Shown here one piece after another: positions 2,703-59,020 of a stretch of 63,877 bases of DNA. Every line of letters starts with the position of its first letter. Position 1 is the first letter of the stretch. The position numbers and the translations under genes were made by a program. The stretch comes from Paraspadella gotoi (taxonomy: Eukaryota > Animalia > Chaetognatha): assembly GCA_051294375.1 (NCBI GenBank), contig CM119263.1, forward strand, positions 14,214,537 to 14,278,413, written 5' to 3'. Below the pieces are notes generated by a model that searched no databases, was not told the DNA's origin, and saw only the letters and a program-made list of their open reading frames with translations.

Positions 2703-4052
2703 CTCTCCGTGATATCGAAAAAGAAGAATTTGTCATCTTCTCCCTTCGCCGAAAGCGTCGTTTGTCATCTTCTCCTCTCATCAACTCTGTCCTTGTGTCA
2801 GACGCAACTGTCGTCGTTGATAAATGTTAAGAAATCGAAAACGACGACGACGATGATAATAAAAATGATGGTGCTGAGAAGGGGATGATGTTATTATAAG
2901 GATGGTCATAATTATCAAGTTCCGAAAATAGAGGCGACGACGATGACGACGACGACGACGACTAAAACGACGCTGATGATGACGATGACTTTTTAATTCA
3001 AGATTCTGCTGCTTCGATTCGATTCTGAATTTGAGAAAACTTGAAGTGGATGAGCTTCTGAACAACGAATCTAGTCTCTCATCTTTTAGGAAAACGATTT
3101 TAATTGCCTTAATCCGTATTTTAATAACACTTTTACTATATTTTATCCTCAAGTAGCCCATCAGAATAAATAGGAAAAAAAAAAGATAAAATTTAGCAGA
3201 GACGTTTCCAGATGATTTTCCCTTGACCAAAAATGGTTCAATCTATAACTTCGTCACTTCAATCATAATTCTACCATCCGTCCATCCCTCACCGTCACTT
3301 CTCCCCCTCGCCCGATTTTTTCTTTCATCCGTGATTCACTTCGAGATTCAAAAAAAAAAAANNNNNNNNNNNNNNNNNNNNNNNNNNNNNNNNNNNNNNN
3401 NNNNNNNNNNNNNNNNNNNNNNNNNNNNNNNNNNNNNNNNNNNNNNNNNNNNNNNNNNNNNNNNNNNNNNNNNNNNNNNNNNNNNNNNNNNNNNNNNNNN
3501 NNNNNNNNNNNNNNNNNNNNNNNNNNNNNNNNNNNNNNNNNNNNNNNNNNNNNNNNNNNNNNNNNNNNNNNNNNNNNNNNNNNNNNNNNNNNNNNNNNNN
3601 NNNNNNNNNNNNNNNNNNNNNNNNNNNNNNNNNNNNNNNNNNNNNNNNNNNNNNNNNNNNNNNNNNNNNNNNNNNNNNNAAAAAAAAAAAAAAAGAGAGA
3701 GAGAAAACTAGATGAATTCGAAAAAAAAACTCAACAAAGAGAAAAAACAAAAGAGAAATCCGTGACCAGAATTCGTTTGTCATTCGAGGACTCGTCATCC
3801 CGCATCGATCCAAGGGGATGGCTTAATTGTCAGCCCATGACGCTGGCATTTCGCTTTCTTGAAGCGATTAAATTTAAAGCGATTGTTTTTTCGGTTTTTT
3901 AAGGCGATCGCCTCAGGGCGAATGTCCTCGATGCTCGGCCCCTCTATCGAATTCCCGCCGAGCTTCGATTTGAGCGATTGTCATTCGATCGATTATATCC
4001 AATAGCTGAGGAGGGGCGCTTTCCTTCTAAATCGGCAGCGTTGCGAATGCAT

Positions 4053-4250
4053 AAAATTGGTAGAACCAATATAAAAATTATCCATTTATTTAATAAATAA
4101 GCTATCTTGCCCCTGACTTTGGACAGGCTTTGATGGTTAAAGGCCTCCATCACTCTTACAAGATAATGACATATCAGGTCCCTGCAAGCTTTCAATCTAG
4201 ACTCTCTCATAGTCTCGTTTAATGATTCCCAGAGTACCTGGCTTCCCTAT
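4053..4250 (-). mobile_element. Dispersed copy of the ~315-bp twister-bearing repeat family (conserved core only)
   Basis: Reverse complement of the unit tandemly arrayed at 39965-40987 and near-identical to 30216-30350. It diverges from the array unit after ...cttccctat (~4250). Confidence 0.85.
4103..4165 (-). ncRNA. Twister-ribozyme-like motif (P5-permuted), variant copy
   Basis: Minus strand reads UAUCUUGU AAGAGU GA UGGA GGCCU UUAACC AU CAAAG CCUG UCCAAAGU CAGG G GCAAGAUA. It differs from the 30268-30330 copy at the cleavage-site UAA (UUA) and T2 (AU), so it may be impaired. Confidence 0.6.
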
Positions 4251-4340: not shown

Positions 4341-4501
4341 TCAGGTAATCCTCTTCCAATCAAATCGGCGACCCTTCAGGTAATCTTCTTCCAATCAAAT
4401 CGACGACCCTTCAGGTAATCTTCTTCCAATCAAATCGACGACCCTTCAGGTAATCTTCTTCCAATCAAATCGACGACCCTTCAGGTAATCTTCTTCCAAT
4501 C
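4341..4501. repeat. 35-bp minisatellite, ~4.6 copies
   Basis: Unit tcaggtaatcttcttccaatcaaatcgacgaccct starts at 4341, 4376, 4411, 4446 and 4481. Confidence 0.92.
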
Positions 4502-4597
4502 ATTGTCATTTTCAATCGCGATATCCAAGCACCGATTCTTTAAGCTTTATACAAACCCACTCTCTTCATTCTCATAGGGGTCGATCCATCAACGTCT

Positions 4598-13009: not shown

Positions 13010-16000
13010 GCGCCATCACACCTCTTCCAAATTGTAAGGCCCCGAAGGCTTCTGCTTCCACACTTTCACCCAATCATTCACTTTGTCTCCACATTCTTTG
13101 TTTTCCGTTTCCCCACTCTGGTTCCGCGTCGCTCTCATCATGGCCCCAAGCTGTGGTCAATTATTCGTATCTTCACTCCTAGATCTGCCCGACAACTATC
13201 CACGATACCACCGATCGCCCACATATAGTTCCCGCTTACGCCGTTCGAACGCCACCACAACATATCTTATTCCAGCTACCCTTCTCAAGAATTCTGATCT
13301 TCCCGCAAACAAACAGAAACCTGGAAATAATGTTTTTTTCAACAATGGCGTTATGTATACTCGTTTTTTTTCTTCTTTTTTCTCTTACTCTGCTCGATTT
13401 CTTCTTCCGTGAATGATTGTGTCACTTTGAGCGCTTCAATTCACACTACAAGTGTTTAGCTAGTATCTATTATTTATATTTATCCTGACCGATTCGAGAA
13501 CACCAAACCACTTACTTCTTTGAGGCCGAAACCGTTGTGGTGTAATTATCAATCAATTATTATCCCATAAGCAACTTAGGAGCAGTATCACTTGATATTA
13601 ATATTAGTTAAATCCCTCATATCTCAGTAGAGTATTTTACATAAGTGTGCTTATTTCCCGAGACAAAAATTTCCTGCCAGAAGACATGTAGAAACACTGG
13701 AAAGGCGAAGTAACAAAGTAAACTAGAACAACAAAGAAAGCCAGAAAGGGAGAGCAGAATAGAGAGAAGGACGAGGAGGAGATGAGAGACAACCGCGAAA
13801 TGCAGACTTCTCATCACAGCACAAAAACAAACGAAGGAGAAGAAAGTGGAAGAGAAGGAAACGGCAGTGATGCATGTCCCATTTTTCGCAATGTCTTAAA
13901 AACAGATGGATAAAAAAAATTTCCTGACAGAAGAAAGATAGAGAGAGAGAAGACAAGAACACGAGCGAGCCGGAGGGAGGAGGAGAGGAGAGATAGAGAG
14001 TGTTGTAAAGCAACTAAACAGGGAATCATTCATTAAAGAAGTGAGGAACGACAAAATATAATATCTCTTACTCCTGGTGAAGATTTTGCTGATTCAAAGG
14101 ATGTGCAGCGAATTAAAACACACGAGGAACACCCATCTCGCCGACGATTCGTGACGATTACCAATATAATTTGGAACCCCATCGACTGTTCACAATTTTC
14201 TTTTTTTTATTTCTTTATTTTTCCTAATGTTCGTTAAAAATTAAATAAGGGACGCTCTGGGCGACTCGCCCACGCCGCACTTAAGGACGCCCGCCCACGC
14301 AGCAGACGCCTGGGTCAACCATCGGCACGCCTCAATTCATTAATGATGGCGCTTTACTTGTCTCTACCGACCCGGCTAATTACGTCACCTCCTCACAGAG
14401 CAGATTCGGTTATGTTATCATCATTTTCATCCATTCTATCATTTCATCATTCAATCAATCAATCAAATTCTGAATCTATGCATTCATCAACCGTCATCTC
14501 AATCATCATCATCTTCATCATCATCAATTTCAACATCAGCAGCAGCAGCATTCGATCGAATTGGACGATTCACGACTATACAAACTAAACAATCTTTGTT
14601 TTATTCTACCACTGCTATCTATATACGCCTCGAAATCTGGCTCTTTTCAATACACAATGAAACACCAACACCGCCATATATTACACACACCTCTTCGGTC
14701 TCCCTCCTGCCATCCCATCCCCTCGCCCCCCTTCTCTCCACTCTGACTCCCACAGATCGAACATCCTCATCTCATGCATACATAAAGACTCTGGTCTTTC
14801 CTTCTCCTTCCACCTCTCTCCTTCTCTCCCTTCTTCTATCTCCCCCCGGGATTAGATTAATGAGTGTAAGAGACCCCTCCGGGTGGTCTCTCACTCCCAT
14901 ATATGATAAAGAACGCTAACATCAACACCAGAAACAGTTGTGAAATCTAACACCAACACCGGACAGGGGGAGAGGAGGAAAGAAAGAAAAAGAGAAAGAG
15001 ACGAGAGGACGATTGAGATGGAGATGAGAGATTCTACTGCCGGATAGAGAAGAAGAGAAAGAGAGAGAATGAGAGAGATAGAGAGAGAAGAAGAGAAAGA
15101 GACGATGATTAATGAGAGAGGAGAGAGAAGAGACGGAGAGAAGAAGAGGAAGATAACAGAGGAGAGGAGAAAACGAGAGAAACTTTCCATCAAAAACGCC
15201 ATTTCTGGCTTTTTCCCATCGGATCGCAAATTGCGCAGATCGGTCTGTATGAAAAAGGAGGTGACGTAATTAGCGTCGGTAAAGACAAAGGCGGTAAAAA
15301 GCGCCAATCATAATGAAGCGGCCGAGTGGGCGGCGTCGCTGGCGTGGGCGGCGTCTTAAGGCGGCGTCGCTAATTACGATTAGAAAAAAAAAAAAAGAAA
15401 TGGAACGCGATGGGCCAATTATTTGGAAATCGAAGAATCGTCGGCGAAGATGGGGAATCCTCGTTAATCCACATCTTGAATCCAAATCTCACCGGGTAAG
15501 AATTTATTTTGTGTTTTCCACTTCTTTAATGATGATCCCTGCTTNNNNNNNNNNNNNNNNNNNNNNNNNNNNNNNNNNNNNNNNNNNNNNNNNNNNNNNN
15601 NNNNNNNNNNNNNNNNNNNNNNNNNNNNNNNNNNNNNNNNNNNNNNNNNNNNNNNNNNNNNNNNNNNNNNNNNNNNNNNNNNNNNNNNNNNNNNNNNNNN
15701 NNNNNNNNNNNTCTTCCTCTTTCTCTTTCTTTGTTTCCTATTTACTTTTTACTCTTTCTGTTTCTCATTCTTGATTTAATAACACTAAAATCTAATGAAC
15801 AAATGATTTTAACTATTAACATAATAACCTAATTTTGAATAATGATTGATATTACACCAAACGTTTCGCCAAAAAAATGGGTGGTCCGATTCCAGATAAA
15901 AAAAAAAGATCGAACACCTTGATTATGATTAAAGCTCAAAGAAAAACACCAGAAAATCGCAGGAGTAAGAGAAAAAAAAAAGAAAAAAAAAGTAAAAACG

Positions 16001-22703: not shown

Positions 22704-25700
22704 ATGACGACGGGATCGTTGATCGACGGAGTGGCGCGAGGCCTTCGCTACCAAATCGAAGTCAAAGATCTGGAAGAAGGATTCGCCGGCGCCGATTGGA
22801 AACCGGCGCTGTTTGGTGCAAGGCGGCGTCCTTTGGGCGTCGTACCGCGAGGACTCGGGTCTGAACTTGAAATATGAATTGAATTGCATTCATTGACCAA
22901 AAATAATTCTCGCAAAATGATTTTCTGCCCAGAGTTTCATCCGGCTGTTTGGACCAAAGAGAAGCGGTGGTCCGGCGTCGCCTCGCCGCCGCCTTTCGCG
23001 GCTTCCGGTTTTTCTCGCCGGGAATTTTCTCCGGCAACAACGCCGATCCGACTTTTGGTTCCAAACCTCCGTTGCATCGGCGTGCTTGGCGGACGCCGTC
23101 GTCCAGGGACTCTCCCCTTAGATCGACGGCGACGACGACGACGACAACCTCGAGGATGAAACGGCCTGACCTGTCGGGGTCATCGATGAGACCGAAGTCG
23201 GCACGACCGACTCCTACGCGTCCAACGTCGGAAAAAGGGACTACGACTCGTGCCACGTCAGCGACGCGCTCGTCACCAGCTCGAGAAGCGGCGTCCTTGC
23301 GCACGCGACCCTCGACGGCGTCGTCGAGTCGCGGCGCCGCTTTCGCCAACGCTTATCAACAAGAGGCTTCTTCGTTCATCAGCGGATCGAAAAGTTTGCG
23401 GGATAGCGTTAAAGGTGAGGCTGCAGTTCAAACCGATAAGAATGATTGTGCTAAAAACAACATCTTGTAATCAACCTTTCTCAACTGTTTCTAGCTACTT
23501 TAAACTCAGTTACTCGTAGAATAAAATAATGTACAATATTAATTAACATATATAAAACGTTGTGGATAATGATTTTCGAAGATAATTTTGGGCATAAATT
23601 ATAAATCCTAAGTTTTGATCAAGACTTAATTGTGAAAAACAGAGAAAAAGTCGTCGAAGGCGAACCGCCTCCTGACTGAAGCCGCCAAATTGATCGTCCA
23701 AATCGAAGAGGTTCATCTGGGTGCGACAGGGGTGGTGACGGAGTCGGGAGAGTCGAAGACAGTTGCCGACCCGGCTCGTCGTCAAGGGTGAATCTCACGA
23801 TGTCTACTAGTAGATCAAAACAAATGCAAAATGTTTGCTAAGAAATATTTAAGATATCTAATAAAGTATGTAGTATAGAAAACGTAATTCCGTTCCCTTT
23901 AACTTTTTAACTTCTGACTTTCTTACATGTTAGACCAGTCGCGGACGGCGATCCGGTCACTATGATGCAGATTGTCGCCACCGAAGACGAAGAAGACGAC
24001 GACGACAACGCCGTCGACAACTCCGCATCGCGTCGAGCGCCGGGACGAGCCCCGAGTCGACCGACGACCAAACCTCGTCAAAGGCCACCTCAATTTTTCA
24101 ACGTCATTTTACGGCGGACAATGAAACCGGAAATGAGGCGCGTTTCGGCGCCGAGAAGTAAACCGGCGCCGACGCAGGCACGACTGGCGGTGAAAGAACG
24201 CGCCGCCTCGAGGGAAAGGTTGGTGGAGGAGGAAGTGGAAGAGGAAAGGGGATACGGAGATTCTCGAATGATGATGAGCTGGTTGAGGGAGCAAGAGGGA
24301 AGGGATAGGGAAGAAGAGGAGGAAGGAATGGGGGATGGAAAGGAGGAAAAAGAACTAAGCACGGTTGTGGAGACTTCCGATAAGAAGGGGAAAAAGAAAA
24401 AGAAAGAAAAAGACGACGACAGCGACTCGTCTTCGTCCTCTTCTTCGTCGTCTTCGTCTTCTCGTTCTAATTCTTCGCGTCGCTCGGATCGAAAATCGAA
24501 TCGAAAGCAAAAGAGCATCGAATCGAACGAAGACGAAGAATCGAAAGAGATCGAGGAGAAATCGTCGAAGAGCGAAGAGTCGGATTCCGGGGACGAAGAT
24601 TCGAGTCGTTCAAGTGATTAGCGAATTAGATTAGAGATCACTTAGAAATTCACATGGAAATTTAATTCCTAATATCGTAAAGCATATAAATTTTGATATT
24701 ACTTACTTTTGGGAAAACCGAGAGAGTTTTTGAGCAGTCGCTCTATGTATTATTAAATCTCAACAATTTATTATTAACCCGCACAGTAGTTTTCATCTTA
24801 CTTTTAGTCTTTTACTCTTGCAAAAAATTGTTTTTGCCGAAACATGTCTGTTTTTAACGTAAATAAAACATCGTTGTTGAAACAAAAACAATTTTCTCTA
24901 ATCTCAAACACAGCGAAAGTGAAAGGATAACTATCGAACAATGTCTTCTACTATAAAAATATTATTGTAAATAAATATTCTTAATATTACTTGAAAAATA
25001 AGAAAATTTCAATGTGGATTTCTCAAATAAAAAAACCGAAAACGACCAAGGCAAAGACAGCGGAAGCGCCAAGCTAGAAGTACCTCATAACGTCAACGAT
25101 AACTCCTACGACGCTACCGACGACGAAAGTAACCAACACGACGCCCACAATACGTCACCGACGGCCATCATCGACGCCGTCATCGAAGACAATGCGCGAA
25201 AATTGCTCTCGATGACTAAAGAACATCTTGTAGACGTCGACGCCAGGGACGAAAGTGGTAGGACGGCTCTTCATGTTGCCAGCCAACGAGGCAACTTCGA
25301 AGCGATGAGGTGCGTTTTCCCCGCGCAGTTTGCACGTGCCTGATGCGTGTGCTTTTATTTTCATTTTTTTTGGGTTTTCATTTTCGGAAACGCGACAGAA
25401 TTTTGACTGAAAGCGGCGCAGATCTGGAGGCAGAGACGCTGACTGGTTTTACTCCCCTGCAACTCTGCGCTATCGAAGGTCGCGTGGATTCTCTGCGAAC
25501 GCTCGTCGATCTCGGCGCTAATCACAGAGTAATTGTTTTTTAAAAATTAAATCGATTAAAAAAATGTATTATTATAATCTCCATAAACAAATTGTTTATG
25601 CTGATGAAGGCTTGAAAATCTAAAGCCGAAACATGTCCTTTATTGAAACAAATAAAATTCATTGTCAAAACGCAAATCTTTTCCGCTAAACATTACAACG

Positions 25701-27224: not shown

Positions 27225-27605
27225 TGAAATGAGTTAGATACTAAAGACCTGTGCAAAAAAAAAAAAAAAAAAAACATTGCCCAAATAAATCTGGTTTGAT
27301 TCCTTTATTATAAAAAATATTATAGGTCAATAAACTTTAGAGAAAAAGCAACGTTCACTCGATCCTTTCTTTGTTAATGATAATATTAGGGGTAGCCGCT
27401 CTCAATGGGGTGAGTCAAAAAATTTAGGAGTGAGTACATGCTCAAACGAAAATTATACATTTTTATGCATACTTTCAAAGGACAAAAAAATTCTTATATG
27501 GCTCTATTGTCTATACCCTAGTAATTAATTTTTAATATATTTATAAATAGGAAAGGCCAAAAAATTTTTTGAGAAATTTTTAATTTTAGGATCAAATTCA
27601 GATAG

Positions 27606-28073
27606 TGTAGCGGTAGTATTTCATACCCCGTTCAGGACCTTGTGTGCAACGGACGGTGAACTGCTCGCGGCATCGTCTTCTTCAGTGGTTAGCCTACACA
27701 AACATGCTGGCACATTAATACTCCTCATGTTAACACACCTCTGCCCTCGACCATCGTGTGTGAAGACGGGAGCAAAAAAAGGCAGCCCCTCCTAGAGTGC
27801 TCGGGCACAACGCGTCCATCATTGCCATCACACTTGAGCGGGTGTGTGATGCCTCGGAGGGGATGTGTAGCGGTAGTATTTTATATATATAGCGCCAGAG
27901 GTAGCACGAGCTCCTCCCAACCCAAAGGACTCGGGTACGCGTCCTGCTGATTCACGCAAGTAAAAGCGGGACGGGGCGTCTAACCCACCTGTAGTGACTG
28001 ACTACAGCCCGATCCGAAGTTTGGGACCTTTTGTGCAACGGACGGTGAACTGCTCGCGGCATCGTCTTCCACA
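27606..28073 (+). mobile_element. TRIM-like non-autonomous LTR retrotransposon (468 bp)
   Basis: 5' LTR 27606-27684 (TGTAGCGGTAGTATTT...CATCGTCTTCTTCA, internally deleted), PBS-like TGGTTAGCC at 27686, PPT GGAGGGGA at 27856-27863, 3' LTR 27866-28073 (TGTAG...CCACA), and 4-bp TSD ATAG at 27602-27605 and 28074-28077. Confidence 0.85.
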
Positions 28074-29199: not shown

Positions 29200-32100
29200 A
29201 TGAAGGCTCTCAAGCTCATCTTCGTCCTGACCCTAGTCGGTAAGTACTGTCATGTTTCATGTCGCTCAAGAGCAACGGGCGGCCCGAACGTATTAGCATT
29301 AGGTAATGGGGTGATAGGAAAAAAACGATGATTAGACCTTTCGGTGCTTTCTCCCACAATAACTAATAGATAATCGATTAATTTTGTTCTTAAAAAAACA
29401 TTAGACTTTACGTTTTTCCTTGATCCTCCGGCTAAATATTATTTATTTTTTTTTTAAATTAGGACAACAGTTGGTTCAAACGTATAGCAGACCCAGAACG
29501 CATATAAAAACTAATCTCTTACGTAAGCTTTATTCAAGTAAGTTCAACATTGATTGCTTTCAAAGTGAAATTCGTTGTACATATGTATAAATTTATTGAC
29601 GAATTCATTAGCGACTGTTTTTCTTGTTTGTTTTTTTTTTGTAGAGCTCAATGATGACGGATCTAATTCCAAAGAAATTTTACGATCTAAAAAGGGTGAG
29701 TACAATGTAATTTGTAACATTAAGTTAGATATCCTTAGCAGTAAGTTTGCATAATACATAAATTGTACCGCAGTACGTACATATACCTAACAGGCTAGGA
29801 CTATGATAGTTGTAATGTTATTAATTGATAAAACACGATTAGAATTTTTTTGGCAACTCTTTCAATATTAAAGGAAAAAACATACTTCATTACTCCTGCA
29901 CTGCTCCAAACGTTTGTAAACTATGAAAAGTTTATTGGAGTCAACTTTTTATAAGGAGACAGTGATAGATAGAGTATAAAATATACAATTTTACAATTGT
30001 ACATCATACAATAGAAATGAATTAATTCAATTAATTCAGAGACATTCATTTTTTATAAATGGTGATTTTAAAACTACAATAACAAACTTTGACCAAAGTA
30101 TTATTTCTTTATGAAGGAAATTATAACAAACGATATAACTATAAGGACGATATTGAATTTGGTGATGATAATTTGACTGTTTATTATGACCGAGCAGCTG
30201 ATTACACGGAGAGTTATGAAATTGGTACAACCAATATAAAAATTATCCATTCATTTAATAAATAAGCTATCTTGCCCCTGACTTTGGACAGGCTTTGGTG
30301 GTTTAAGGCCTCCATCACTCTTACAAGATAATGACATAGTAGGTCCCTGCTATTATTAGTAATAATGTTTTGAGAATAATCAAGGCAAGTTCAGTAATGA
30401 AACATTATTCTTAATTTATTTCAGAATTACTCTCAAGGATAAGCGAACTTCTCAACTTGACTCTCAATAACTCTTCAGATTCCAAAAGTTCCGACAACTT
30501 GATCACTGAAACAACTCAAAACCCGGAATCTGGGGATGAATACGTTGTAACTGAAGGACCTGATTCTAAGTCTCAAAACACTTCTGCAAATAGTGAAAAT
30601 CCAACTGAAAGTCCTGATTCTTCTAACAATGATGCAACTGAAAGTCCTGATCACTATGATTCAGTGACTCAAAGCAATAGTGCTCATGGTAATAATCCAA
30701 CTGAAAGTCCTAATTATTCCGATTATTCCTCTCACGATGATGCAACTGAAGGTCCTGATTACTATGATTCAGTGACACTGAAAGCAATAGTGCTCATGGT
30801 AATAATCCAACTGAAAGTCCATATTATTCCAATTATTCCTCTCACAATGATGCAACTGAAGGTTCTGATTACTATGATTCAGTGACTGAAAGCAATAGTG
30901 CTCATGGTAATAATCCAACTGAAAGTCCATATTATTCCGATTATTCCTCTCACTATGATGCAACTGAAGGTCCTGATTACTATGATTCAGTGACTGAAAG
31001 CAATAGTGCTCATGGTAATAATCCAACTGAAAGTCCATATTATTCCAATTATTCCTCTCACAATGATTCAACTGAAGGTTCTGATTACTATGATTCAGTG
31101 ACTGAAAGCAATAGTGCTCATGGTAATATCCAACTGAAAGTCCATATTATTCCTATTATTCCTCTCACTATGATGCAACTAAAGGTCTGATGGTAATAAT
31201 CCAACTGAAAGTCCATATATCCTATTATTCGCTCTCACTATGATGCAAATGAAGGTCCTGACTACTATGATTCAGTGACTCAAAGCAATAATGCTCATCA
31301 TAATAATCCAGCTAAAAGTCCTTATTATTCCTATTATTCCTCTCACTATGATGCAACTGAAGGTTCTGATTACTATGATTCAGTGACTGAAAGCAATAGT
31401 GCTCATGGTAATAATCCAACTGAAAGTCCATATTATTTCCTATTATTCCTCTCACTATGATGCAACTGAAGGTCCTGATGGTAATAATCCAACTGAAAGT
31501 CCTTATTATTCCTATTATTCCTCTACTATGATGCAAATAAAGGTCCTGACTACTATGATTCAGTGACTCAAAGCAATAGTGCTCATCATAATAATCCAGC
31601 TAAAAGTCCTTATTATTCCTATTATCCTCTCACTATGATGCAACTGAAGGTCCTGATGGTAATAATCCAACTGAAAGTCCATATTATTCCTATTATTCCT
31701 CTTACTATGATGCAAATAAAGGTCCTGACTACTATGATTCAGTGACTCAAAGCAATAGGCTCATCATAATAATCCAGCTAAAAGTCCTTATTATTCCTAT
31801 ATTCCTCTCACTATGATGCAAATGAAGGTCCTGATTACTATGATTCAGTGACTCAAAGCAATGCTCATGTAATAATCCAACTGAAAGTCCATATTATTCC
31901 TATTATTCCTCTTACTATGATGCAAATAAAAGGTCCTGATTACTATGATTCAGTGACTCAAAGCAATAATGCTCATCATAATAATCCAGCTAAAAGTCCT
32001 TATTATTCCTATTATTCTCTCACTATATGCAACTGAAGGTCCTGATGGTAATAATCCAACTGAAAGTCATATTATTCCTCTCACTATGATGCAACTGAAA

Positions 32101-33272
32101 GTCCTTCTACTATAATGATTACTCCTCTAACTATTATAATCAATACGATCATCACGAGACCACGACTGCCACCCCAGATACTGAAGCAACTGGAATTCCA
32201 GACTTTTTTAAATGTAAACATGGAATTGTGGAGCCTTGGATGTAAATCCTTTCGCAAATCCAGGTAAAGATTCTTGATAGTTATTTTTAAAAAATTGGAA
32301 CTAAAAACTTTTTAATTCCCTTTTTACTGGTAAAAATTGTATTCAAAGGTGCTTGTGAAGAATTAATGACAGAAATTTGGAATTGGGTTGTCAAAAATTA
32401 TGACGATGATCACCTTCGTCACTTGAACCGCCGTGATCACGACATCACGATCACACTTTCACGATCACTTTCACGATCACAATCACGATCACGATCACAG
32501 TCACGATCACAATCATGATCACGTCGCCGTGATCACAATGAGAATGACCTCAATAAGAAAATTCATAATTTTTGGGTAAGCATGGCTACCAATGCCCTCT
32601 GTTTTTTCTTCAAAATTATTTTTTAATCAATTTTTTTTAATCCCTCTAGATATTTGTGACGAATTTAATGGAAAAAACTGAAAAATCTGCCAGCGTACTC
32701 ATCGCTCGCTACTCATAAAATCGTTTCAGACGATTGTACAATATTTAGAAGAAGATGGCCACAAGGAAAGAGAAGTGAAAAGAGGAGAAGCTCAAAAGGG
32801 AAGTCAAAGAAATAGCAAAGGCAAAAACGTATTACAAAGAACCAGGACGAATCGGGGACCTGAAGACGATTAAAGGATAAAGCGGGAACCAGCTAAATAT
32901 TCGAACAAAGACAAAATGAAGGCGGTGTTGATCCAAAGTTGAGGGCTTTGATTAGGAAAGGTGTGGAACTAATAAGAGGCAAGAAACTTAATAAGAAACG
33001 CTTTGAAAAAAAAAATATGCCAAAAAAAGTGGAGAATAAAATTGAAAAAGATACTCTGAAAAGGTTAAGCTTAAGAGATATAAATCAAAAGAGTTTGGCG
33101 AAAAAGAATACGCAAAGAGTTAAAAGGAGAATTGGAAAGTTTTGAAGAGAAGACCGAACTTAAATTGAGAGATAAGATGCAAAAAAAGATGAGAAAATCC
33201 AACTTTAGGAGGAAAGTTGACGAGGCAGATTCGATTAAGAAAGGATCGAGACCTGGAAGGAAGTTCAACTGA
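29200..33272 (+). CDS. Secreted tandem-repeat protein: signal peptide, Tyr/Ser/Asp/His-rich 36-aa repeats, Cys motif, His-Asp tract, Lys/Arg-rich tail (copy A)
   Basis: Phase-compatible exons at 29200-29239 (MKALKLIFVLTLVG), 29463-29522, 29645-29695, 30425-32263, 32349-32575 and 32650-33272. Frameshifts after ~30780 look like read errors, because the last exons are intact in copy B. Confidence 0.8.
30216..30350 (-). mobile_element. Dispersed copy of the ~315-bp twister-bearing repeat, antisense in intron 3 of the secreted-protein gene
   Basis: Near-identical to 4053-4185 and to the reverse complement of the 39965-40987 unit. Confidence 0.85.
30268..30330 (-). ncRNA. Twister ribozyme, P5-type permutation with palindromic P1 (cleanest copy)
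   Basis: Minus strand reads UAUCUUGU AAGAGU GA UGGA GGCCU U^AA ACC AC CAAAG CCUG UCCAAAGU CAGG G GCAAGAUA. P4 CCUG/CAGG, T1 UCCA/UGGA, T2 AC/GU, P3 C-AAA-G and P5 UAUCUUGU/GCAAGAUA all pair. The conserved UAA, GA and L4 AAG are present. Predicted cut is between 30305 and 30304. Confidence 0.8.
30600..32105 (+). repeat. Coding minisatellite, 108-bp unit (with 72-bp variants)
   Basis: gtgactgaaagcaatagtg recurs at 30882, 30990 and 31098. The unit encodes TESNSAHGNNPTESPYYSDYSSHYDATEGPDYYDSV. Confidence 0.95.
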
Positions 33273-34074: not shown

Positions 34075-37000
34075 ATGAAAGTAAGTTTGCTAATTACTAA
34101 TTACGACGTAATGCCGAATTTATCATGTAGCTAAAACACACGGATCAGACAACATTGGTGCCTGATATCATGCAAATTTTCCCTATTCATTTTTTTTTTT
34201 TGGTAACGTTTTCTCTTTCCCTCCTCTACTCTATGTACCTCTCTACTCCAAGGCTGTCCGCCAAGTGAGCCGCGAGCGCCTCGGCTTCGGCCGGAAGCGG
34301 AGCGCCTCGTCGGGGGGGCGGTCGCGTTCGCAGGACTCGGTGGAGGGAGCCGCGGAGACGAGCGGCGCCCTGGAGCTGAAGCCTCTCGACGACGCCGAGC
34401 CGTGTGGCGACGCCGCGGAACACGGCGACATCGACGCCGTCAAAGAGATTCTGACAAACGCCTTCGCCGATCCCAACGCCTGTAAGTTAAGCGGCGTTCG
34501 ACGGAGTTTGTTTTTTTGTTGATATATTGTGTTTTAAAATTAATTGGTAGTATCACTAACCATTATTGATTATTTATGACCAATTAAAAAAAAAAAACCC
34601 TCTTCGCTCGGATTCCCCGTTCGTTTGAAAGGCTCCAACGGAAAGACGGCGCTGTACTTGGCGGCGGCGGCGGGCACTTGGAGGTCGTCTGCTTCCTCCT
34701 CTCGCACGGCGCCTCCCCCAACCGGAAGTCCAGTCTCGAGACACGCCCCTCCACGTGGCCGCCGCCAACGGGCAGACTGATATCGTCGAAAAGTTGATCG
34801 CCGAAGGTACAAGAAATGTTATCAATTAATTAATTAAGAAAGAAAGATAGAAAGAAGAAAGAACCAATCGATCAATCACTTAATTAATTAAGTCAATAAA
34901 TCATAAAACAAATAAATCAAATGAATTTATAATAAATATAACATTATCATTATCACTCAACACTGTAGAAAAAATACAGGTTGAAATGATACAAGTCGTC
35001 GTCCTCCCAATTATCATAGTCATCATCAACTATGATATTAAATTAAGTCAATCTATCACATCCTCGTCAGGCTGTCTGAAGACGGACGAACTGGATCTCT
35101 ACGAACGCACCCCCGCTCCACCCGGCGGCGGCGGGCGGCCACTTGGAGGGGTGACGCTGCTGCTGCTACGTGGCGCCGACGCGGACCGCGTGGACGGATC
35201 CTCCGAGTCGCCGCTCCACCTCGGCGTCGGCGCGGAATCACTACCCGTCGTGCAAGCGCTCATAGAGGGCGGCGCCGACGTAACCTCTTGAACGAGGAAG
35301 GACAGACTCCGTTGCACATCGGTAAACAATCGAGCTTAAAATATAGCGATATATATTCATAAATGGAGTGGACAAGTAATAAAAATAGTCGAAATGTTAA
35401 ACGCAAAAATTAGTCAGTTCTTGGAAATGTTTCGTCGTCCCAATTTGTCGGCTTTGGAGTCGAATGCCGGTGTACTTGACCCGGAACTCCTTGACTTTTC
35501 TAGAAAATTTCGCCAAAGAGAAAGAGAGAGATCAGTACAGTGGCTGAAACTCGAAAGCTAGTCGAGTTGACCGTGACAAAGCTTGCTTGCATGTTTGCAT
35601 CCCATGATCAGCCTGCGAAGAAGGTCACGTGGAAACGACACAAATCCTCCTCGCCGCTCAGGCGGACATGAAACCTCTTTGGATTCACACGGAGTGGCGG
35701 CACTCTACGCCGCCACCTGCAAAGATCATTTCGAGGTTTGTTAGGTTGGCGCCGTTGGCGAAGGATATGATTCGACCCTGGATCATGGATGTTGACCGTT
35801 ATTCATGCATTTCGTTTTTACAGATTGTTCGTTGCTCTCCAGTGCACGGGGCCAATCTCAATATTATGAACTCTCGAGGCCAAGGTGAGACGGTTTTCTC
35901 TCTCACTCTCTTCTCTCTCTCTCTCTCTCTCTCTCTCCTCTCTCCTCTCCTCTCTCCTCTCTCTCTCTCTTTCTCTCTCTTCCTCTAAAAGAAAACCATC
36001 CCCTCTTCAGCACCCTGCACATGGCTGTCCTGCAGTCCAACCTTGAAATCATCCAAGAACTCGTGAACGACGGGGCGTCGCTCGACGTTCAGGACGACGA
36101 CGGTTACACCCCGCTGTACTTGGCTTCGTGGAATCCTTACAAGTGCAGGTGATTATTCCTTAATCTTTCATTGATAAATTCTTTTATCATTCTCTCATTC
36201 AATCACTCATTAAAACTCTTTTCTTCAATCATTCCTTTGTTTCTTTTTGACCTTAAACATTTTTCTAATCGAAAGAACAACGTCTCTACCCTTTCATACT
36301 TGATCAAAAACGTGCTAACATGAACATTTGTGATAACGGCGGATCGGCTCCTCTGCTGAGGTCCTTCTATCGAAAGGACAAAACAAATGTTTGAATCGCT
36401 TCTCAGAAGGTAAATTGGAGGGATTTTTGGTTGGGTAATCTAAATATAACTCTAAGACGTCACAAAATATTATAAAAAGATAATTATTTGTGAATTCCGC
36501 AATCTACCAGCGGAGCGGACGTGAACATTGGAACCTGTGATCTTCTATAACACGGCCGTCTTCCTCGGCGACGTCCACACCTGCAAGATGCTTGTCCAGT
36601 CTGGCGTCGATCCTGGAGGAACCAGTGGCTCGATCCCAACAAGGTCACTGCCAAGGGAGAAGCAGAAGGACGCCACAAAGAACAAAGAAGTTTCAGGTGA
36701 ATAAGAAAGAAAAAGAAAGAAGGAAAAGAAGAAAGAAGAATAATTTTTATCTTATTCGTTATAAAATCAAAAGCATTAAAACCGTTTTCTTCCCGCCCTC
36801 CATAATCGCTTCAGCATGCTGCACGGTTGGTTGAAGCGACTCCGGTCCGAACCTCGTCGCCTCAAGCACGTCTGCGCGCTGACGATTCGCAGACACGCCG
36901 TGCCCCCTCTTGCCTCACAGGGTCAATCGGCTCACTCTTCCGCAATGCTTGAAGGTCGGCGATTTAGAAACAAAGAACTTCCTGAAAGAATCAGTTAATT

Positions 37001-39177: not shown

Positions 39178-39273
39178 TGCTCATGGTAATAATCCAACTG
39201 AAAGTCCATATTATTCCGATTATTCCTCTCACTATGATGCAACTGAAGGTCCTGATTACTATGATTCAGTGAC
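39178..39273 (+). repeat. Orphan single unit of the 108-bp coding repeat next to a 25-N gap
   Basis: Matches the repeat unit of the secreted-protein gene (AHGNNPTESPYYSDYSSHYDATEGPDYYDSVT). Probably a misplaced contig fragment. Confidence 0.85.
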
Positions 39274-39964
39274 CTCGTGGGTAGACAAAGTATGTGATTT
39301 GAGCGAGATTATAAAGTTTTCTCACTTCTCCTTCTCTCCAAATCGCAGCCTCTACTTAACAACGTGAGTTCATCTTAAGCAATTCTACAAAACTGACAAT
39401 TATTAATTACAATCTAATAAATATATAAATTATTTTACGATTGTGAACTCGTTTAGTGTTTGATGAATAGTTTTTTATTGTTTTTTTGGGACTCATAATT
39501 CACTTATCAGTCATCAGTATGTCCTCCAAAAAAAGGAAAAAAAAATTTAAAAAAGAAAGATAAAAAAGACAAAAAAAGGAAGTCAATGACTTGATTAGCT
39601 TTTTACCCTATTTGTGTGGGCTACGTCCTACATTGTTTGTTAAAACTGTTTCTATATCTTTTAAACTGAAATAAAATAAATTAATTGGGTGGTTAAAAAT
39701 ACAAAATTTATAATTTTTTGGAATAAATATGAAATAAATGAGTTAACCAATAATGAAAAATATGTATATTTAATTCAGTTAATAAAACAATTCTTGAAAG
39801 AAGGAAAAAAAAGATCTATAGAGAGAGAAAAAAGAGAGAGGAGGAAAAAAAAGGTGAATGAGAAAAAGAGAGAGAGAGCAAAAGAGAGAGGGAAAAAAAG
39901 AAAAAGGGAGAGAGAAAGAGGAGTAACAGACAGGGAAATTTCTCAGATATAATAACATACATAA

Positions 39965-40987
39965 ATTATCTGTAAGAGTGTGGAGGCTTAAACCACAAAG
40001 CCTGTCCAAAGTCAGGGCAAGATAGCTTATTTTATTGAATGAATGGATAATTTTTATATTGGTTGACCCAATTTCATTAAATTCAGTCCTGTATTTGAGG
40101 CTAGTCGGGAGTACAATAAGATCCCCGATCTAATACTTAAGGGAGTGGTTTTTCTACAATTGAAAACATTCTTTGAATATTTTCCACTTCATTGATAGCG
40201 AAGCAGTACTCTGGGAGGAATAACGAGACTGTGAGAGAGTCTTTGATTGAAGCTTGCAGGGACCTGACTATGTCATTATCTTGTTAAGAGTGATGAGGCC
40301 TTAACCCACCAAAGCCTGTCCAAAGTCAGGGGCAAGATAGCTTATTTATTAAATGAATGGATAATTTTTATATTGGGTACCAATTTCATTAAAATTCAGC
40401 TCCTTGTATTTTGATGCTAGTGCGGAGTTACAATAAGTATTTCCCCGATCTATACTTAAGAGTGTTCTTTTCATACAATTGAAACATTCTTTGAAATATT
40501 TTCCACTTCATTTGATAGGGGAAGCCAGGTACTCTGGAGTGAATAAACGAGACTGTGAGAGAGTCTTGATTGAAAGCTTGCAGGACTGCTATTGTCATTC
40601 TTTTAGAGTGATGGAGGCTTAAACCACCAAAGCCTGTCCAAAAGTCAGGGCAAGATAGTTATTTAATGAATGGATAATTTTTATATTGGTGTCCAATTTC
40701 ATAAAATTCAGCTCCTGTATTTTGATGCTAGTGCGGGTACAATAAGTTTCCCCGATCTAATACTTAAGGAGTGGTCTTTTCATACAATTAAAAATTCTTT
40801 GAAATATTTTTCACTTCATTTTGATAGGGAAGGCCAGGTACTCTGGGAGTGAATAAACGAGACTGTGCAGAGAGTCTTTGATTTGAAAGGCTTGCAGGGA
40901 CCTGCTATGTCATTATCTTGTAAGAGTGATGGAGGCCTTAAAACACCAAAGCCTGTCCAAGTCAGGGCAGATAGTTATTATTAAATG
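39965..40987 (+). mobile_element. Tandem array of ~315-bp units, each junction carrying a twister-ribozyme motif (retrozyme-like)
   Basis: aaaccaccaaagcctgtcc recurs at ~39990, 40303, 40621 and 40941. Twister motifs lie at ~39967-40024, 40277-40339, 40598-40657 and 40914-40973, so the array starts and ends with the motif. The sequence is indel-noisy, but the consensus matches the clean 30268-30330 copy. Confidence 0.8.
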
Positions 40988-41606
40988 TGGGAGATTGTTT
41001 TAAAACATGTTGAGCATTAGCTCTAACCTATTTGTAACCTTGTAGATTTACTGGGCGAAGCCATTTCACTCTCAAAAATAAGAATCAATCCAAATCACAA
41101 GATTAATTAAATAAAAGAGAGCCGAGAGAGAGAGAGCTACAGATAGAGAGAGAGGCTCAAATAGAGAGTTCAAAGCTGCATACAAATATAATTCCAATAA
41201 TTAGAATTCATTTCAAAGAGTTAACAAATATTTCATCATATTACCTAATGTTTCCTGGGCAATCTCCTAAAAGTTTTAACATCTACTTGCCCTTTACTTC
41301 CTTTAAAATTTGAATGACAATTAAAACGACTTTCGACTTTGAGAAAATACTACCATAATTGGATCAGAAAGGTTCTCGTCCAATCAGATTTAAGAACTAA
41401 ATTTAACCAATGAAATCATAGATGAGACGAGTTTGGAGAATTTAAGCTAGTAACGTTATGTATTCCATATATAAAACCGAATATTAATTTCGAAAAACTA
41501 ATAATATTTATAAACTATTACATTAAATGAATGGATAATTTTTATTGGTTGTACCAATTTATAGTCAGAAAGTTATATTTTCTATCTAAACTTTGCTTCT
41601 CTTTAA

Positions 41607-52896: not shown

Positions 52897-53270
52897 TGAA
52901 ATGAGTTAGATACTAAAGACCTGGCAAAAAAAAAAAAAAAAAACATTGCCCAAATATCTGGTTTGATTCCTTTAATTAAAAAATATTATAGGTCAATAAA
53001 CTTTAGAGAAAAAGCAACGTTCACTCGATCTTTTCTTGTTAATGATAATATTAGGGGTAGCCGCTCTCAATGGGGTGAGTCAAAAATTTAGAGTGAGTAC
53101 ATGCTCAAACGAAAATTATACATTTTTATGCATACTTTCAAGGACAAAAAAATTCTTTATATGGCTCTATTGTCTATACCCTAGTAATTAATTTTTAATA
53201 TTTATTTATAAATAGGAAAGGCCAAAAAATTTTTTGAGAAATTTTTAATTTTAGGATCAAATTCAGATAG

Positions 53271-53734
53271 TGTAGCGGTAGTATTTCATACCCCGTTCAG
53301 GACTTGTGTGCAACGGACGCGTGAACTGCTCGCGGGGACTCGTCTTCTTCAGTGGTTAGCCTACACAAACATGCTGGCCATAATACTATCCTCATGTTAA
53401 CACACCTCTGCCCTCGACCATCGTGTGTGAGACGGGAGCAAAAAAGGCAGCCCCTCTAGAGTGCTCGGGCACAACGCGTCCATCATTGCCATCACACTTG
53501 AGCGGGTGTGTGATTGCCTCGGAGGGGATGTGTAGCGGTGTATTTATATATATAGCGCCAGAGGTAGCACGAGCTCTCCCAACCCAAGGACTCGGGTACG
53601 CGTCCTGCTGATTCACGCAAGTAAAAGCGGGACGGGGCGTCTAACCACCTGTAGTGACTGACTACAGCCCGATTCCGAAGTTGGTGACCTTTTTGTGCAA
53701 CGGACGGTGAATGCTCGCGGCATCGTCTTCCACA
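53271..53734 (+). mobile_element. TRIM-like element (duplicate of 27606-28073)
   Basis: Same LTR/PBS/PPT layout and ATAG TSD. Confidence 0.8.
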
Positions 53735-54851: not shown

Positions 54852-57800
54852 ATGAAGGCTCTCAGCTCATCTTCGTCCTGACCCTAGTCGGTAAGTACTG
54901 TCATGTTTCATGTCGCTCAAGAGCAACGGGCGGCCCGAAAGTATTAGCATTAGGTAATGGGGTGATAGGAAAAAAACGTGATTAGACCTTTCGGTGCTTC
55001 TCCCACAATAACTAATAGATAATCGATTAATTTTGTTCTTAAAAAAACATTAGACTTTACGTTTTTCCTTGATCCTCCGGCTAAATATTATTTATTTTTT
55101 TTTTAAATTAGGACAACAGTTGGTTCAAACGATAAGCAGACCCAGAACGCATATAAAAACTAATCTCTTACGTAAGCTTTATTCAAGTAAGTTCAACATT
55201 GATTGCTTTCAAAGTGAAATTCGTTGTACATATGTATAAATTTATTGACGAATTCATTAGCGACTGTTTTTCTTGTTTGTTTTTTTTTGTAGAGCTCAAT
55301 GATGACGGATCTAATTCCAAAGAAATTTTACGATCTAAAAAGGGTGAGTACAATGTAATTTGTAACATTAAGTTAGATATCCTTAGCAGTAAGTTTGCAT
55401 AAACATAATTGTACCGCAGTACGTACATACCTAACAGGCTAGGACTATGATAGTTGTATGTTATTAATTGATAAAACACGATTAGAATTTTTTGGCAACT
55501 CTTTCAATATTAAAGGAAAAAACATACTTCATATACTCCTGCACTGCTCCAAACGTTTGTAAACTATGAAAAGTTTATTGGAGTCAACTTTTTATAAGAG
55601 ACAGTGATAGATAGAGTATAAATATTACAATTTTACACATTGTACATCATACAATAGAAATGAATTAATTCAATTAATTCAGAGACATTCATTTTTTATA
55701 AATGGTGATTTTAAAACTACAATAACAAACTTTGACCAAAGTATTATTTCTTTATGAAGGAAATTATAACAAACGATATAACTATAAGGACGATATTGAA
55801 TTTGGTGATGATAATTTGACTGTTTATTATGACCGAGCAGCTGATTACACGGAGAGTTATGAAATTGGTACAACCAATATAAAAATTATCCATTCATTTA
55901 ATAAATAGCTATCTTGCCCCTGACTTTGGACAGGCTTTGGTGGTTTAAGGCCTCCATCACTCTTACAAGATAATGACATAGTAGGTCCCTGCTATTATTA
56001 GTAATAATGTTTTGAGAATAATCAAGGCAGTTCAGTAATGAAACATTATTCTTAATTTATTTCAGAATTACTCTCAAGGATAAGCGAACTTCTCAACTTG
56101 ACTCTCAATAACTCTTCAGATTCCAAAAGTTCCGACAACTTGATCACTGAAACAACTCAAAACCCGAATCTGGGGATGAATACGTTGTAACTGAAGGACC
56201 TGATTCTAAGTCTCAAAACACTTCTGCAAATAGTGAAAATCCAACTGAAAGTCCTGATTCTTCTAACAATGATGCAACTGAAAGTCCTGATCACTATGAT
56301 TCAGTGACTCAAAGCAATAGTGCTCATGGTAATAATCCAACTGAAAGTCCTAATTATTCCGATTATTCCTCTCACGATGATGCAACTGAAGTCCTGATTA
56401 CTATGATTCAGTGACTGAAAGCAATAGTGCTCATGGTAATAATCCAACTGAAAGTCCATATTATTCCAATTATTCCTCTCACAATGATGCAACTGAAGGT
56501 TCTGATTACTATTGATTCAGTGACTGAAAGCAATAGTGCTCATGGTAATAATCCAACTGAAAGTCCATATTATTCCGATTATTCCTCTCACTATGATGCA
56601 ACTGAAGGTCCTGATTACTATGATTCAGTGACTGAAAGCAATAGTGCTCATGGTAATAATCCAACTGAAAGTCCATATTATTCCAATTATTCCTCTCACA
56701 ATGATGCAACTGAAGGTTCTGATTACTATGATTCAGTGACTGAAAGCAATAGTGCTCATGGTAATAATCCAACTGAAATCCATATTATTCCTATTATATC
56801 CTCTCACTATGATGCAACTAAAGGTCCTGATGGTAATAATCCAACTGAAAGTCCATATTATTCCTATTTATCCTCTCACTATGATGCAAATGAAGGTCCT
56901 GACTACTATGATTCAGTGACTCAAAGCAATAATGCTCATCATAATAATCCAGCTAAAAGTCCTTATTATTCCTATTATTCCTCTCACTATGATGCAACTG
57001 AAGGTTCTGATTACTATGATTCAGTGACTGAAAGCAATAGTGCTCATGGTAATAATCCAACTGAAAGTCCATATTATTCCTATTATTCCTCTCACTATGA
57101 TGCAACTGAAGGTCCTGATGGTAATAATCCAACTGAAAGTCCTTATTATCCTATTATCCTCTCACTATGATGCAATGAAGTCCTGATGGTAATTAATCCA
57201 ACTGAAAGTCCTTATTATTCCTATATATTCCTCTACTATGATGCAAATAAAGGGTCCTGACTACTATGATTCAGTGACTCAAAGCAATAGTGCTCATCAT
57301 AATAATCCAGCTAAAATCCTTATTATTCCTATTATTCCTCTCACTATCATATGCAACTGAAGGTCCATGATGGTAATAATCCAACTGAAAGTCCATATTA
57401 TTCCTATTTTCCTCTTACTATGATGCAAATAAAGGTCCTGATACTATGATTCAGTGACTCAAAGCAATAGCTCATCATAATAATCCAGCTAAAAGTCTTA
57501 TTATTNNNNNNNNNNNNNNNNNNNNNNNNNCCTATTATTCCTCTCACTATGATGCAAATGAAGGTCCTGATTACTATGATTCAGTGACTCAAAGCAATGC
57601 TCATGGTAATAATCCAACTGAAAGTCCATATTATTCCTATTATTCCTCTTACTATGATGCAAATAAAGGTCCTGATTACTATGATTCAGTGACTCAAAGC
57701 AATAATGCTCATCATAATAATCCAGCTAAAAGTCCTTATTATTCCTATTATTCCTCTCACTATGATGCAACTGAAGGTCCTGATGGTAATAATCCAACTG

Positions 57801-59020
57801 AAAGTCCATATTATTCCTCTCACTATGATGCAACTGAAAGTCCTTCTTACTATAATGATTACTCCTCTAACTATTATAATCAATACGATCATCACGAGAC
57901 CACGACTGCCACCCCAGATACTGAAGCAACTGGAATTCCAGACTTTTTTAAATGTAAACATGGGAATTGTGGAGCCTTGGATGTAAATCCTTTCGCAAAT
58001 CCAGGTAAAGATTCTTGATAGTTATTTTTAAAAAAATTGGAACTAAAAACTTTTTAATTCCCTTTTTTACTGGTAAAAATTTGTATTCAAAGGTGCTTGT
58101 GAAGAATTAATGACAGAAATTTTGAATTGGGTTGTCAAAAATTATGACGATGATCACCTTCGTCACTTGAACCGCCGTGATCACGATCACGATCACTTTC
58201 ACGATCACTTTCACGATCACAATCACGATCACGATCACAGTCACGATCACAATCATGATCACCGTCGCCGTGATCACAATGAGAATGACCTCAATAAGAA
58301 AATTCATAATTTTTGGGTAAGCATGGCTACCAATGCCCTCTGTTTTTTCTTCAAAATTATTTTTTAATCAATTTTTTTTAATCCCTCTAGATATTTGTGA
58401 CGAATTTAATGGAAAAAACTGAAAAAATCTGCCAGCGTACTCATCGCTCGCTACTCATAAAATCGTTTCAGACGATTGTACAATATTTAGAAGAAGATGG
58501 CCACAAGGAAAGAGAAGTGAAAAGAGAGGAGAAGCTCAAAAGGGAAGTCAAAGAAATAGCAAAGGCAAAACGTATTACAAAGAAAACAGGACGAATCGGG
58601 GACCTGAAGACGATTAAAAGGATAAAGCGGGAACCAGCTAAATATTCGAACAAAGACAAAATGAAGGCGGTGTTGATCCCAAAGTTGAGGGCTTTGATTA
58701 GGAAAGGTGTGGAACTAATAAGAGGCAAGAAACTTAATAAGAAACGCTTTGAAAAAAAAAATATGCCAAAAAAAGTGGAGAATAAAAATGAAAAGAATAC
58801 TCTGAAAAGGTTAAGCTTAAGAGATATAAATCAAAAGAGTTTGGCGAAAAAGAATACGCAAAGAGTTAAAAGGAGAAATGGAAAGTTTTTGAAGAGAAGA
58901 CCGAACTTAAATTTGAGAGATAAGATGCAAAAAAAGATGAGAAAATCCAACTTTAGGAGGAAAGTTGACGAGGCAGATTCGATTAAGAAAGGATCGAGAC
59001 CTGGAAGGAAGTTCAACTGA
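54852..59020 (+). CDS. Secreted Tyr-rich repeat protein, copy B (3' exons intact)
   Basis: Intact ORFs at 57584-58018 (..FFKCKHGNCGALDVNPFANPG), 58110-58316 (DHDHDHFHDH tract) and 58391-59020 (Lys/Arg-rich), joined by GT-AG introns. Confidence 0.8.
55910..55972 (-). ncRNA. Twister ribozyme motif (duplicate of 30268-30330)
   Basis: Identical 63-nt motif. Confidence 0.78.

Follow-up and report, generated by a model that had tools for sequence, protein, structure and literature searches.

A tandem array of short units at positions 39965-40987 of a stretch of DNA from Paraspadella gotoi (contig CM119263.1; the whole 63,877-nt stretch is referred to as the window) raises the question of whether a mobile repeat can follow a retrozyme-like life cycle with a twister ribozyme in place of a hammerhead, as the original prediction proposed. 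We conclude that the array is a single insertion of a high-copy, non-coding repeat family, which carries a type-P5 twister core in each unit.

The array and its dispersed copies

The array had been described as non-coding units of ~315 bp, and analysis with TRF agrees with this description (period 318, 3.2 copies, 86% matches, 10% indels). The units are 313-322 nt long with a GC content of 36-38%. The four twister-like motifs that were thought to bound three monomers are also present, and the monomers between their predicted cuts measure 313, 318 and 319 nt. In the following list, R1 denotes a covariance model built from 69 phage twisters only.

39965..40987, plus strand: tandem array of non-coding ~320-bp units, 3.2 units (TRF)
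39966..40025, plus strand: Twister-P5 motif 1, with 1-nt deletions as assembled; Rfam Twister-P5 17.9 bits, R1 20.8 bits (E 0.0003); predicted cut after 39989
40276..40340, plus strand: Twister-P5 motif 2; Rfam 17.7 bits, R1 13.1 bits; predicted cut after 40302
40597..40658, plus strand: Twister-P5 motif 3; R1 14.0 bits, alignment; predicted cut after 40620
40913..40974, plus strand: Twister-P5 motif 4; R1 14.4 bits, alignment; predicted cut after 40939
40372..40392, plus strand: terminal hairpin and fixed 3' end of the family in unit 2, ~90 nt downstream of the cut
40988..41521, no strand: unrelated 534-bp sequence, an apparent interruption of the last unit; 8 bases repeated at both sides
41522..41561, plus strand: probably the 3' tail of the array's insertion, whose last bases are the fixed 3' end of the family (BLAST; alignment 46/51 columns)

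Two of the hairpins named in the original prediction, attggt/accaat and agact/agtct, are legible directly in the sequence, but the third (gcagg/cctgc) would have a loop of 2 nt and is in reality a hairpin of 4 bp with a 4-nt loop. The 534-bp sequence has no terminal inverted repeats, its ends are not complementary, and there is no second copy of it in the window. The first 8 bases of the piece that follows it at 41.5 kb are identical to those at the point where the array is interrupted, 534 bp before, and this piece is therefore probably the tail of the array insertion.

Differences among the array units consist mostly of indels. Pairwise comparisons give 27-34 indel events (22-32 of them one-base) versus 6-10 substitutions per pair, and the array motifs differ from the family majority sequence by 27 indel events, 24 of which are 1 nt long, and by 8 substitutions. 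This is the pattern of noisy long reads. Contigs of the sequencing runs correct bases also in the array flanks, and at position 40305 (motif 2) the reads carry A instead of C at nearly all depth. As assembled, 0/4 array motifs are intact, and a descriptor of the intact core matches only the copies at 30 kb and 55 kb listed below. No contig in the sequencing runs spans the whole array, and the number of units is thus given as assembled. The whole unit is covered by depth in four runs, and the 5' flank is joined to motif 1 by one contig in each of two runs, with a short side of only 20-26 bases.

Comparison of the window with itself shows that the family occurs both as an array and as dispersed copies, with partial copies at 4051-4250 (minus strand), 30214-30350 (minus), 55857-55992 (minus) and 41516-41560 (plus). 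All partial copies previously placed at 4053, 30216 and 41525 could thus be located, but the last is probably part of the array insertion and not a separate copy. The dispersed copies are as follows.

30214..30350, minus strand: dispersed copy truncated at its 5' side, with the majority sequence of the family; its twister core (30277-30319) is intact, and the predicted cut falls between 30305/30304
55857..55992, minus strand: the 30-kb copy repeated by a 25.7-kb duplication, not independent (self-comparison)
4051..4250, minus strand: dispersed copy, also 5'-truncated; 135 aligned columns contain 7 substitutions, of which one affects the adenines of the cleavage site; R1 16.9 bits

The copy at 55 kb is not counted as independent because 16083-38095 is repeated at 41879-63877. 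This 25.7-kb tandem duplication shows 88-96% identity with many small indels, and may have arisen in assembly, from two haplotypes or from uncorrected reads placed one after the other. The dispersed copy at 4051-4250 has a separate 35-bp tandem repeat (4341-4502, 4.6 copies, 98% matches) at a distance of 90 bp.

All structural conclusions are drawn from the copy at 30214-30350. Reads were compared as assembled contigs from 13 sequencing runs, none of which is recorded as RNA, although two may be of RNA origin. In sequencing run X6, 4,261 contigs match this 137-bp copy, and the hundreds of distinct flanks around them indicate high copy number. Only two variants reach 4%, one of which replaces U-G by U-A in P5 and so preserves the pair, while the other falls on the mismatch of P2 described below. 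In the same run, 42 contigs stop matching at 30294, 10 nt downstream of the predicted cut, and continue into sequence that is loosely reference-like; these may derive from an older subfamily that differs in its P1-P2 region. In the runs labelled organism B, organism C and marine metagenome there are 3, 1 and 1 contigs, respectively, at a depth of 2-5. They are near-identical to the window copy, provide no covariation, and may reflect trace carry-over or a close relative. An exact 20-mer of the motif has 0 matches in metagenome contigs and one chance match in prokaryote genomes, which lacks the rest of the motif. A degenerate motif pattern has 0 matches in viral contigs, and of 103 metagenome matches to a short-P1 pattern none (0/103) passes the pairing descriptor.

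The twister core and its six-nucleotide P1

In the register adopted here, the core begins with the 5' strand of P5, P2' (AGU), the catalytic strand GAUGG, the linker AGGCCU and UAA, and continues with P2 (ACC), T2 (AC), a 5-nt spacer, P4 (CCUG), L4 (UCCAAAGU), CAGG and the 3' strand of P5. All parts are present in the order P5, P2', G-A-T1', P1, N^AA, P2, T2, P4/L4, P5', and the descriptor and the Rfam alignment agree on this. The roles of the catalytic positions in the twister core are well known. The catalytic G, the adjacent A and U^AA at the predicted cut, whose roles are also covered in a twister survey (PMC11662667), are all found in the majority sequence (GAUGG, UAA), and the pairs of pseudoknots T1 (3 pairs plus A-A) and T2 (2 pairs) are all Watson-Crick. 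P4 has 4 bp and L4 has 8 nt, and seven of the eight P5 pairs have a pairing probability of 0.96-1.0. P2 forms 2/3 pairs; its distal C-A mismatch has counterparts in only a few phage twisters. A first register with GAGG as the catalytic strand was dropped, as it left P2 unpaired and GAUGG completes T1.

The gathering score of Rfam family RF02684 is 37.6, and nothing in the window matches at this level. The clean copy at 30 kb scores 25.8 bits (E 0.0014), and Rfam arrives at the same register unaided. The same copy matches the descriptor and scores 24.7 bits with R1 (E 2e-5). Both T1 and T2 depart from the Rfam consensus in one pair, where both partners are exchanged and G-C becomes A-U. In order to compare these changes with known type-P5 twisters, we used phage loci gathered by pattern, of which 198/296 yield 258 distinct type-P5 parses; these patterns sample phage-type motifs only. 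The T1 swap is present in 27 distinct phage twisters, and 12 of those carry the T2 swap as well and have the same GAUGG, UAA, AC and UCCAAAGU as the window motif. The A-U version of T2 is found in 158+12 phage parses and that of T1 in 27. The A-U versions pair in the alignment (A3), whose rows were chosen by pattern and do not represent independent covariation. P2 is 3 nt long and fully paired in 236/258 phage parses, and 3 nt long with a distal mismatch in 7/258. It can also be observed that A-U versions of T1 and T2 are common among phage twisters, and that five phage contigs (L304, L312, L323, L062 and L345) encode 4-12 type-P5 twisters each, a few hundred bases apart.

Applied to the window, R1 recovers all 7 family copies (E 2e-5 to 0.045) among 9 matches. 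A further match lies at 15445-15491 (E 0.29). A descriptor requiring a 7-bp P5, written after the motif was seen, gives 7 matches in 150 shuffled windows. Taken together, the Rfam register, the double swaps in phage, the R1 matches and the pattern of variants indicate that the core, as judged by its sequence, is a genuine type-P5 twister. The twister identity originally proposed is supported by Rfam, the phage parses and R1, and refined to the type-P5 order with a minimal P1. From its sequence, we consider it likely that the ribozyme would be active.

The most unusual part of the motif is the P1 linker, which consists of 6 nt (AGGCCU) and is a perfect palindrome, whereas P1 measures 14-33 nt in 258/258 phage parses, obtained with patterns that permitted P1 linkers from 3 nt upward. 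No stable P1 hairpin is predicted for the 6-nt linker of the majority sequence, and we therefore class the motif as a minimal-P1 variant of type P5 and not as a plain member. Energy folding of a single motif, with a program that ignores pseudoknots, does not form P2 and P4 (P4 0.06-0.07; z -0.25). As a self-duplex, AGGCCU would form 6 bp at -9.1 kcal/mol, and two ribozymes that swap halves would rebuild a 6-bp P1 through their palindromes. In a modelled precursor with two ribozymes the palindromes pair at a probability of 0.99-1.0 and both P4 stems form (0.95, 0.99), whereas P4 reaches only 0.10 when a single ribozyme is modelled in context. Controls give mixed support to a swapped dimer in these models: the dimer gain is matched by 132/500 shuffles, non-palindromic permutations of the linker still adopt the swapped fold in 35/45 cases, and both P4 stems form in 25/45 of these versus 21/24 palindromic linkers. 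A similar design has been reported for axolotl retrozyme hammerheads, in which helix III has 1 bp and a palindromic tetraloop and cleavage is poor alone and better as dimers (PMC7229834), and for the hammerheads of Penelope elements (PMC6765202). We see even chances that a dimer would be needed for efficient cleavage.

The stronger support for the dimer comes from an independent second family with a similar P1 design, located at 27.6-28.1 kb.

27605..28069, plus strand: second element, not related to the first and partly tandem, with a 46-bp terminal repeat at a spacing of 389 bp; repeated near 53270-53730
27967-28024, plus strand: type-P5 twister motif of the second element; R1 15.4 bits, E 0.01

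This motif has a P3 hairpin, the G-C version of T1 and a linker of 6 nt whose self-complementarity includes G-U pairs, and it is unrelated in sequence to the array family. Rfam does not match it at E up to 5. The region also carries a 21-bp repeat 260 bp apart, and together the repeats suggest a partial tandem whose first copy is without a twister core. The terminal repeat ends 88 nt past the predicted cut, behind a hairpin, in the one case available. In the non-duplicated 41.9 kb of the window, a relaxed descriptor finds exactly two motifs, both with 6-nt self-complementary linkers. In 400 shuffles it matches twice when every linker length is counted and never with a 6-nt linker, and the chance that a random 6-mer is self-complementary is ~0.02 (~0.05 when G-U pairs are allowed).

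Ends of the copies and content of the unit

The copies of the family share a fixed 3' end. In run X6, at least 345 of the 4,261 contigs end within 3 nt at this position (115, 150 and 80 at adjacent positions), and the flanks beyond it agree only at 0.41. Loose ends behind 40376, up to which the consensus continues, are found in 36, 286, 165 and 43 contigs of runs X1, X3, X5 and X9, respectively, and one contig of run X13 continues beyond the 3' end into the next unit. All three independent window loci (3/3, with the 41.5-kb piece counted as the tail of the array) have this same 3' end, 91 nt downstream of the predicted cut and behind the terminal hairpin, and their 5' ends differ (39965, 4250 and 30350). 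There is no pile of 5' ends at the predicted cut in run X6, and depth passes across it without a step (895,743, 896,218 and 877,263 in adjacent bins), which indicates that templates or copies span the cut. The insertions are thus not bounded by the ribozyme cut but start ~90 nt inside the cut monomer and cross it. What lies upstream of the twister in these copies is unit sequence and not a coding region. Target-site duplications, which the retrozyme-like reading had led one to look for, are absent from 3/3 window loci. Penelope-like elements, including the non-autonomous ones, have been reported to show fixed 3' ends, 5' truncation, partial tandems and target duplications that are hard to see (PMC8557442).

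The footprint fits a non-autonomous retroelement copied from circular or multimeric RNA, and not the 5' end of a LINE. That the family has moved by way of RNA is very probable.

The predicted circle has no coding capacity, as its longest stop-free stretch is 94 aa and its length is not a multiple of 3, and it is not more stable than shuffled sequences (z -0.3 to -1.5). The hammerhead core CUGANGA is absent from both strands of 3/3 units, and Rfam reports no hammerhead. RNA polymerase III promoters are recognized by their A- and B-box consensus patterns, neither of which occurs in the unit, and each unit includes 4-6 T4-T5 runs. A SINE derived from tRNA or 5S RNA does not fit, since there is no A or B box and the T4-T5 runs are internal.

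The window was also expected to harbor PLE and LINE remnants as candidate helpers. This expectation was not borne out: 0/185 frames of at least 62 aa match Pfam families of reverse transcriptases or endonucleases, a search that shorter or frameshifted remnants would escape, and a motif scan for a helper gave isolated, unconvincing matches only.

Proposed life cycle, alternatives and relation to known systems

The reading that we favor, and hold to be rather probable, is that the repeat family is a twister-based retrozyme-like element that is cut as dimers, circularized and moved by a Penelope-like enzyme. Arrays would be transcribed by read-through, probably by RNA polymerase II, as the T4-T5 runs and the lack of an A or B box suggest. 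Every U^AA in the multimeric transcripts would serve as a cut site, probably for neighboring ribozyme pairs joined via their palindromes, and the resulting ~320-nt RNAs would be circularized by a host ligase. Reverse transcription would then start at the terminal hairpin with a borrowed, likely Penelope-like, enzyme that usually stops early and at random, so that most copies would be sub-unit fragments and a few would be multimers. Since the insertions start ~90 nt inside the monomer and cross the cut, the template would be either an internally primed circle or an uncut multimer, and we lean slightly towards the circle. By analogy, we also give a Penelope-like helper a little better than even chances; animal retrozymes have been proposed to derive from Penelope-like elements (10.64898/2026.07.22.740005). 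The retrozyme-like reading originally offered is thus supported by the non-coding tandem unit, the high copy number, the fixed 3' end and the variable 5' ends, but not with respect to helper remnants and target duplications. The same 2026 preprint also reports that only 1/9 predicted dimers of Xenopus retrozymes were cleaved, which shows that prediction can fail.

The alternative that survives best, although we regard it as unlikely, is that the unit comes from a Penelope-like element or another non-LTR element, of which it would be the terminal repeat (pLTR) or a short derivative that is itself non-autonomous. Its copies would be made from linear transcripts that remain uncut and stop at the fixed 3' position. 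Tandems would then arise via template jumping or local amplification, and circles, if any, would be a by-product. The fixed 3' end is equally compatible with an uncut linear transcript, and its A-rich edge, the steep 5' truncation and the fact that most matched copies are shorter than one unit are consistent with this explanation. The same is true of summed depth, which drops 5- to 11-fold past the fixed 3' end in four runs, a hint at most, given the noisy reference and the difference between depth and copy number. In addition, non-autonomous elements of Chlamys are reported to insert as head-to-tail multicopies without hammerheads (PMC8557442). Against it, copies run upstream of the twister into unit sequence with no coding region, and the fact that two unrelated families both have a paired, intact twister core suggests a use for cleavage. 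This explanation fits the DNA evidence equally well and differs only in the role of circles as template.

An improbable alternative is that the twister core is a decayed, non-cleaving passenger of a family that spreads as an ordinary SINE-like or satellite repeat. The clean copy does lie under the Rfam cut-off, P1 is shorter than in 258/258 phage parses, P2 is mismatched and the catalytic fold is not the predicted ground state of the monomer. However, every catalytic and pseudoknot position is intact in the majority sequence, and according to a survey restricted to type-P1 twisters (PMC11662667), natural twisters can have defects in P1, P2 and P4, whereas defects in the pseudoknots or at catalytic positions are not tolerated. 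The 6-nt P1 is furthermore seen twice independently, and an A or B box that a SINE-like repeat might use is absent.

Finally, it is very improbable that the motif is the 5'-end ribozyme of a longer autonomous LINE (cf. Perere-3 of Schistosoma) or that the array is an assembly artefact. RTE elements with a twister at the 5' end have been described (PMC8501958, PMC7761336), but here the permutation is P5 and not P1, no 5' ends pile up at the cut, and conserved sequence lies upstream of the ribozyme and stops ~90 nt downstream of the cut. The noisy window, its 25.7-kb duplication and the lack of a spanning contig speak for an artefact; the tandem junction in an independent contig and the coverage of the full unit by depth in four runs speak against it.

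Returning to the twister-based retrozyme-like reading, its closest counterparts are the non-LTR retrozymes of animals (Cervera and de la Pena 2020, PMC7229834; Li, Clavereau and Pollet 2026, 10.64898/2026.07.22.740005). The window family shares with them non-coding tandem units of 150-450 bp with a GC content below 50%, one ribozyme per unit, the lack of an LTR, the presence of monomers and multimers, and high copy number. Amphibian retrozymes have a helix of only 1 bp together with a tetraloop that is palindromic, and they perform better in dimeric form; the window family has a 6-nt palindromic P1. Non-LTR retrozymes are defined by the type I hammerhead, whereas the window family has a type-P5 twister and no hammerhead; it is therefore retrozyme-like in its working but not a member as defined. 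Circles, cleavage and a helper have been shown or argued for hammerhead retrozymes, and are only predicted for the window family.

Type-P5 twisters of phages (Rfam RF02684) share with the window motif the order of parts, the catalytic strand, U^AA, the 3-nt P2, both pseudoknots and the 8-nt L4. They lie between phage genes and have a P1 hairpin of 14-33 nt, whereas the window motif belongs to a eukaryotic repeat and has a 6-nt P1 and one P2 mismatch. The twister variants of Perere-3 and other RTE elements (Liu et al. 2021, PMC8501958) have in common with it a link to retroelements and a weak P1. Those twisters are type-P1, occur singly and form the 5' end of coding LINEs, the target duplication lying beside the cut; the window family is P5, tandem and non-coding, with the ribozyme near its 3' end and no target duplication.

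With Penelope-like elements (PMC6765202, PMC8557442), the family shares a ribozyme near a fixed 3' end, 5' truncation and partial tandems. Their minimal hammerheads have a short palindromic helix that needs a dimer, and the palindrome in the window family is similar. Penelope-like elements carry a hammerhead, in contrast to the twister here, and encode their enzyme. Pairs of ribozymes, twister included, at distances of 186-399 nt are further described for totivirus tandems (PMC13725137) and for circles engineered with tandem twisters (PMC7229834). Small circles are predicted or made there as well, but from virus segments or constructs and not from genomic mobile repeats.

A retrozyme-like route for a twister has apparently not been described. 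We found no twister-based tandem retroelement or natural dimeric twister in the full-text literature, a scope that leaves subscription papers and key supplements mostly outside. Six twister loop motifs have 6 occurrences in the supplement of PMC8557442 (583,918 characters), and among the 5 listed none is in a twister context, in a text where line breaks or loop variants could hide matches. In the literature consulted, eukaryotic twisters have so far been linked only to the 5' ends of RTE elements, and the window family would add a second role. If true, the retrozyme life cycle would be independent of the class of ribozyme, and the palindromic P1 would represent a natural dimeric twister, in which the solution of the dimeric hammerheads was reached in another ribozyme.

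More tentatively, and with less than even chances in our estimate, there may be a class of twister retrozymes, with two unrelated families in 42 kb, that are natural obligate dimers and may descend from twister-bearing Penelope-like elements. If halves are swapped through the 6-nt palindrome, only tandem copies would process themselves, and Penelope-like ancestors that used a twister instead of a hammerhead would explain some of the clades regarded as 'hammerhead-less'. Searches for type-P1 or hairpin-P1 twisters would miss those with a palindromic P1. The P5 order together with a 6-nt self-complementary linker thus provides a recipe with which to search the terminal repeats in those Penelope-like clades that reportedly have no hammerhead.

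Several other repeats are present in the window. A coding-like 108-bp tandem repeat at 30415-32140 and 56190-58020 would encode a protein repeat rich in Ser, Tyr, His and Asp, for which Pfam gives no credible family, and a short piece of it occurs again at 39178-39275, adjoining a gap. Pfam identifies ankyrin-repeat exons split by introns at 25002-25540 and 34588-36149, which together with microsatellites mark the DNA as eukaryotic. A degenerate, A-rich tandem repeat of ~660 bp with 65-78% identity between copies extends over 7100-12600.
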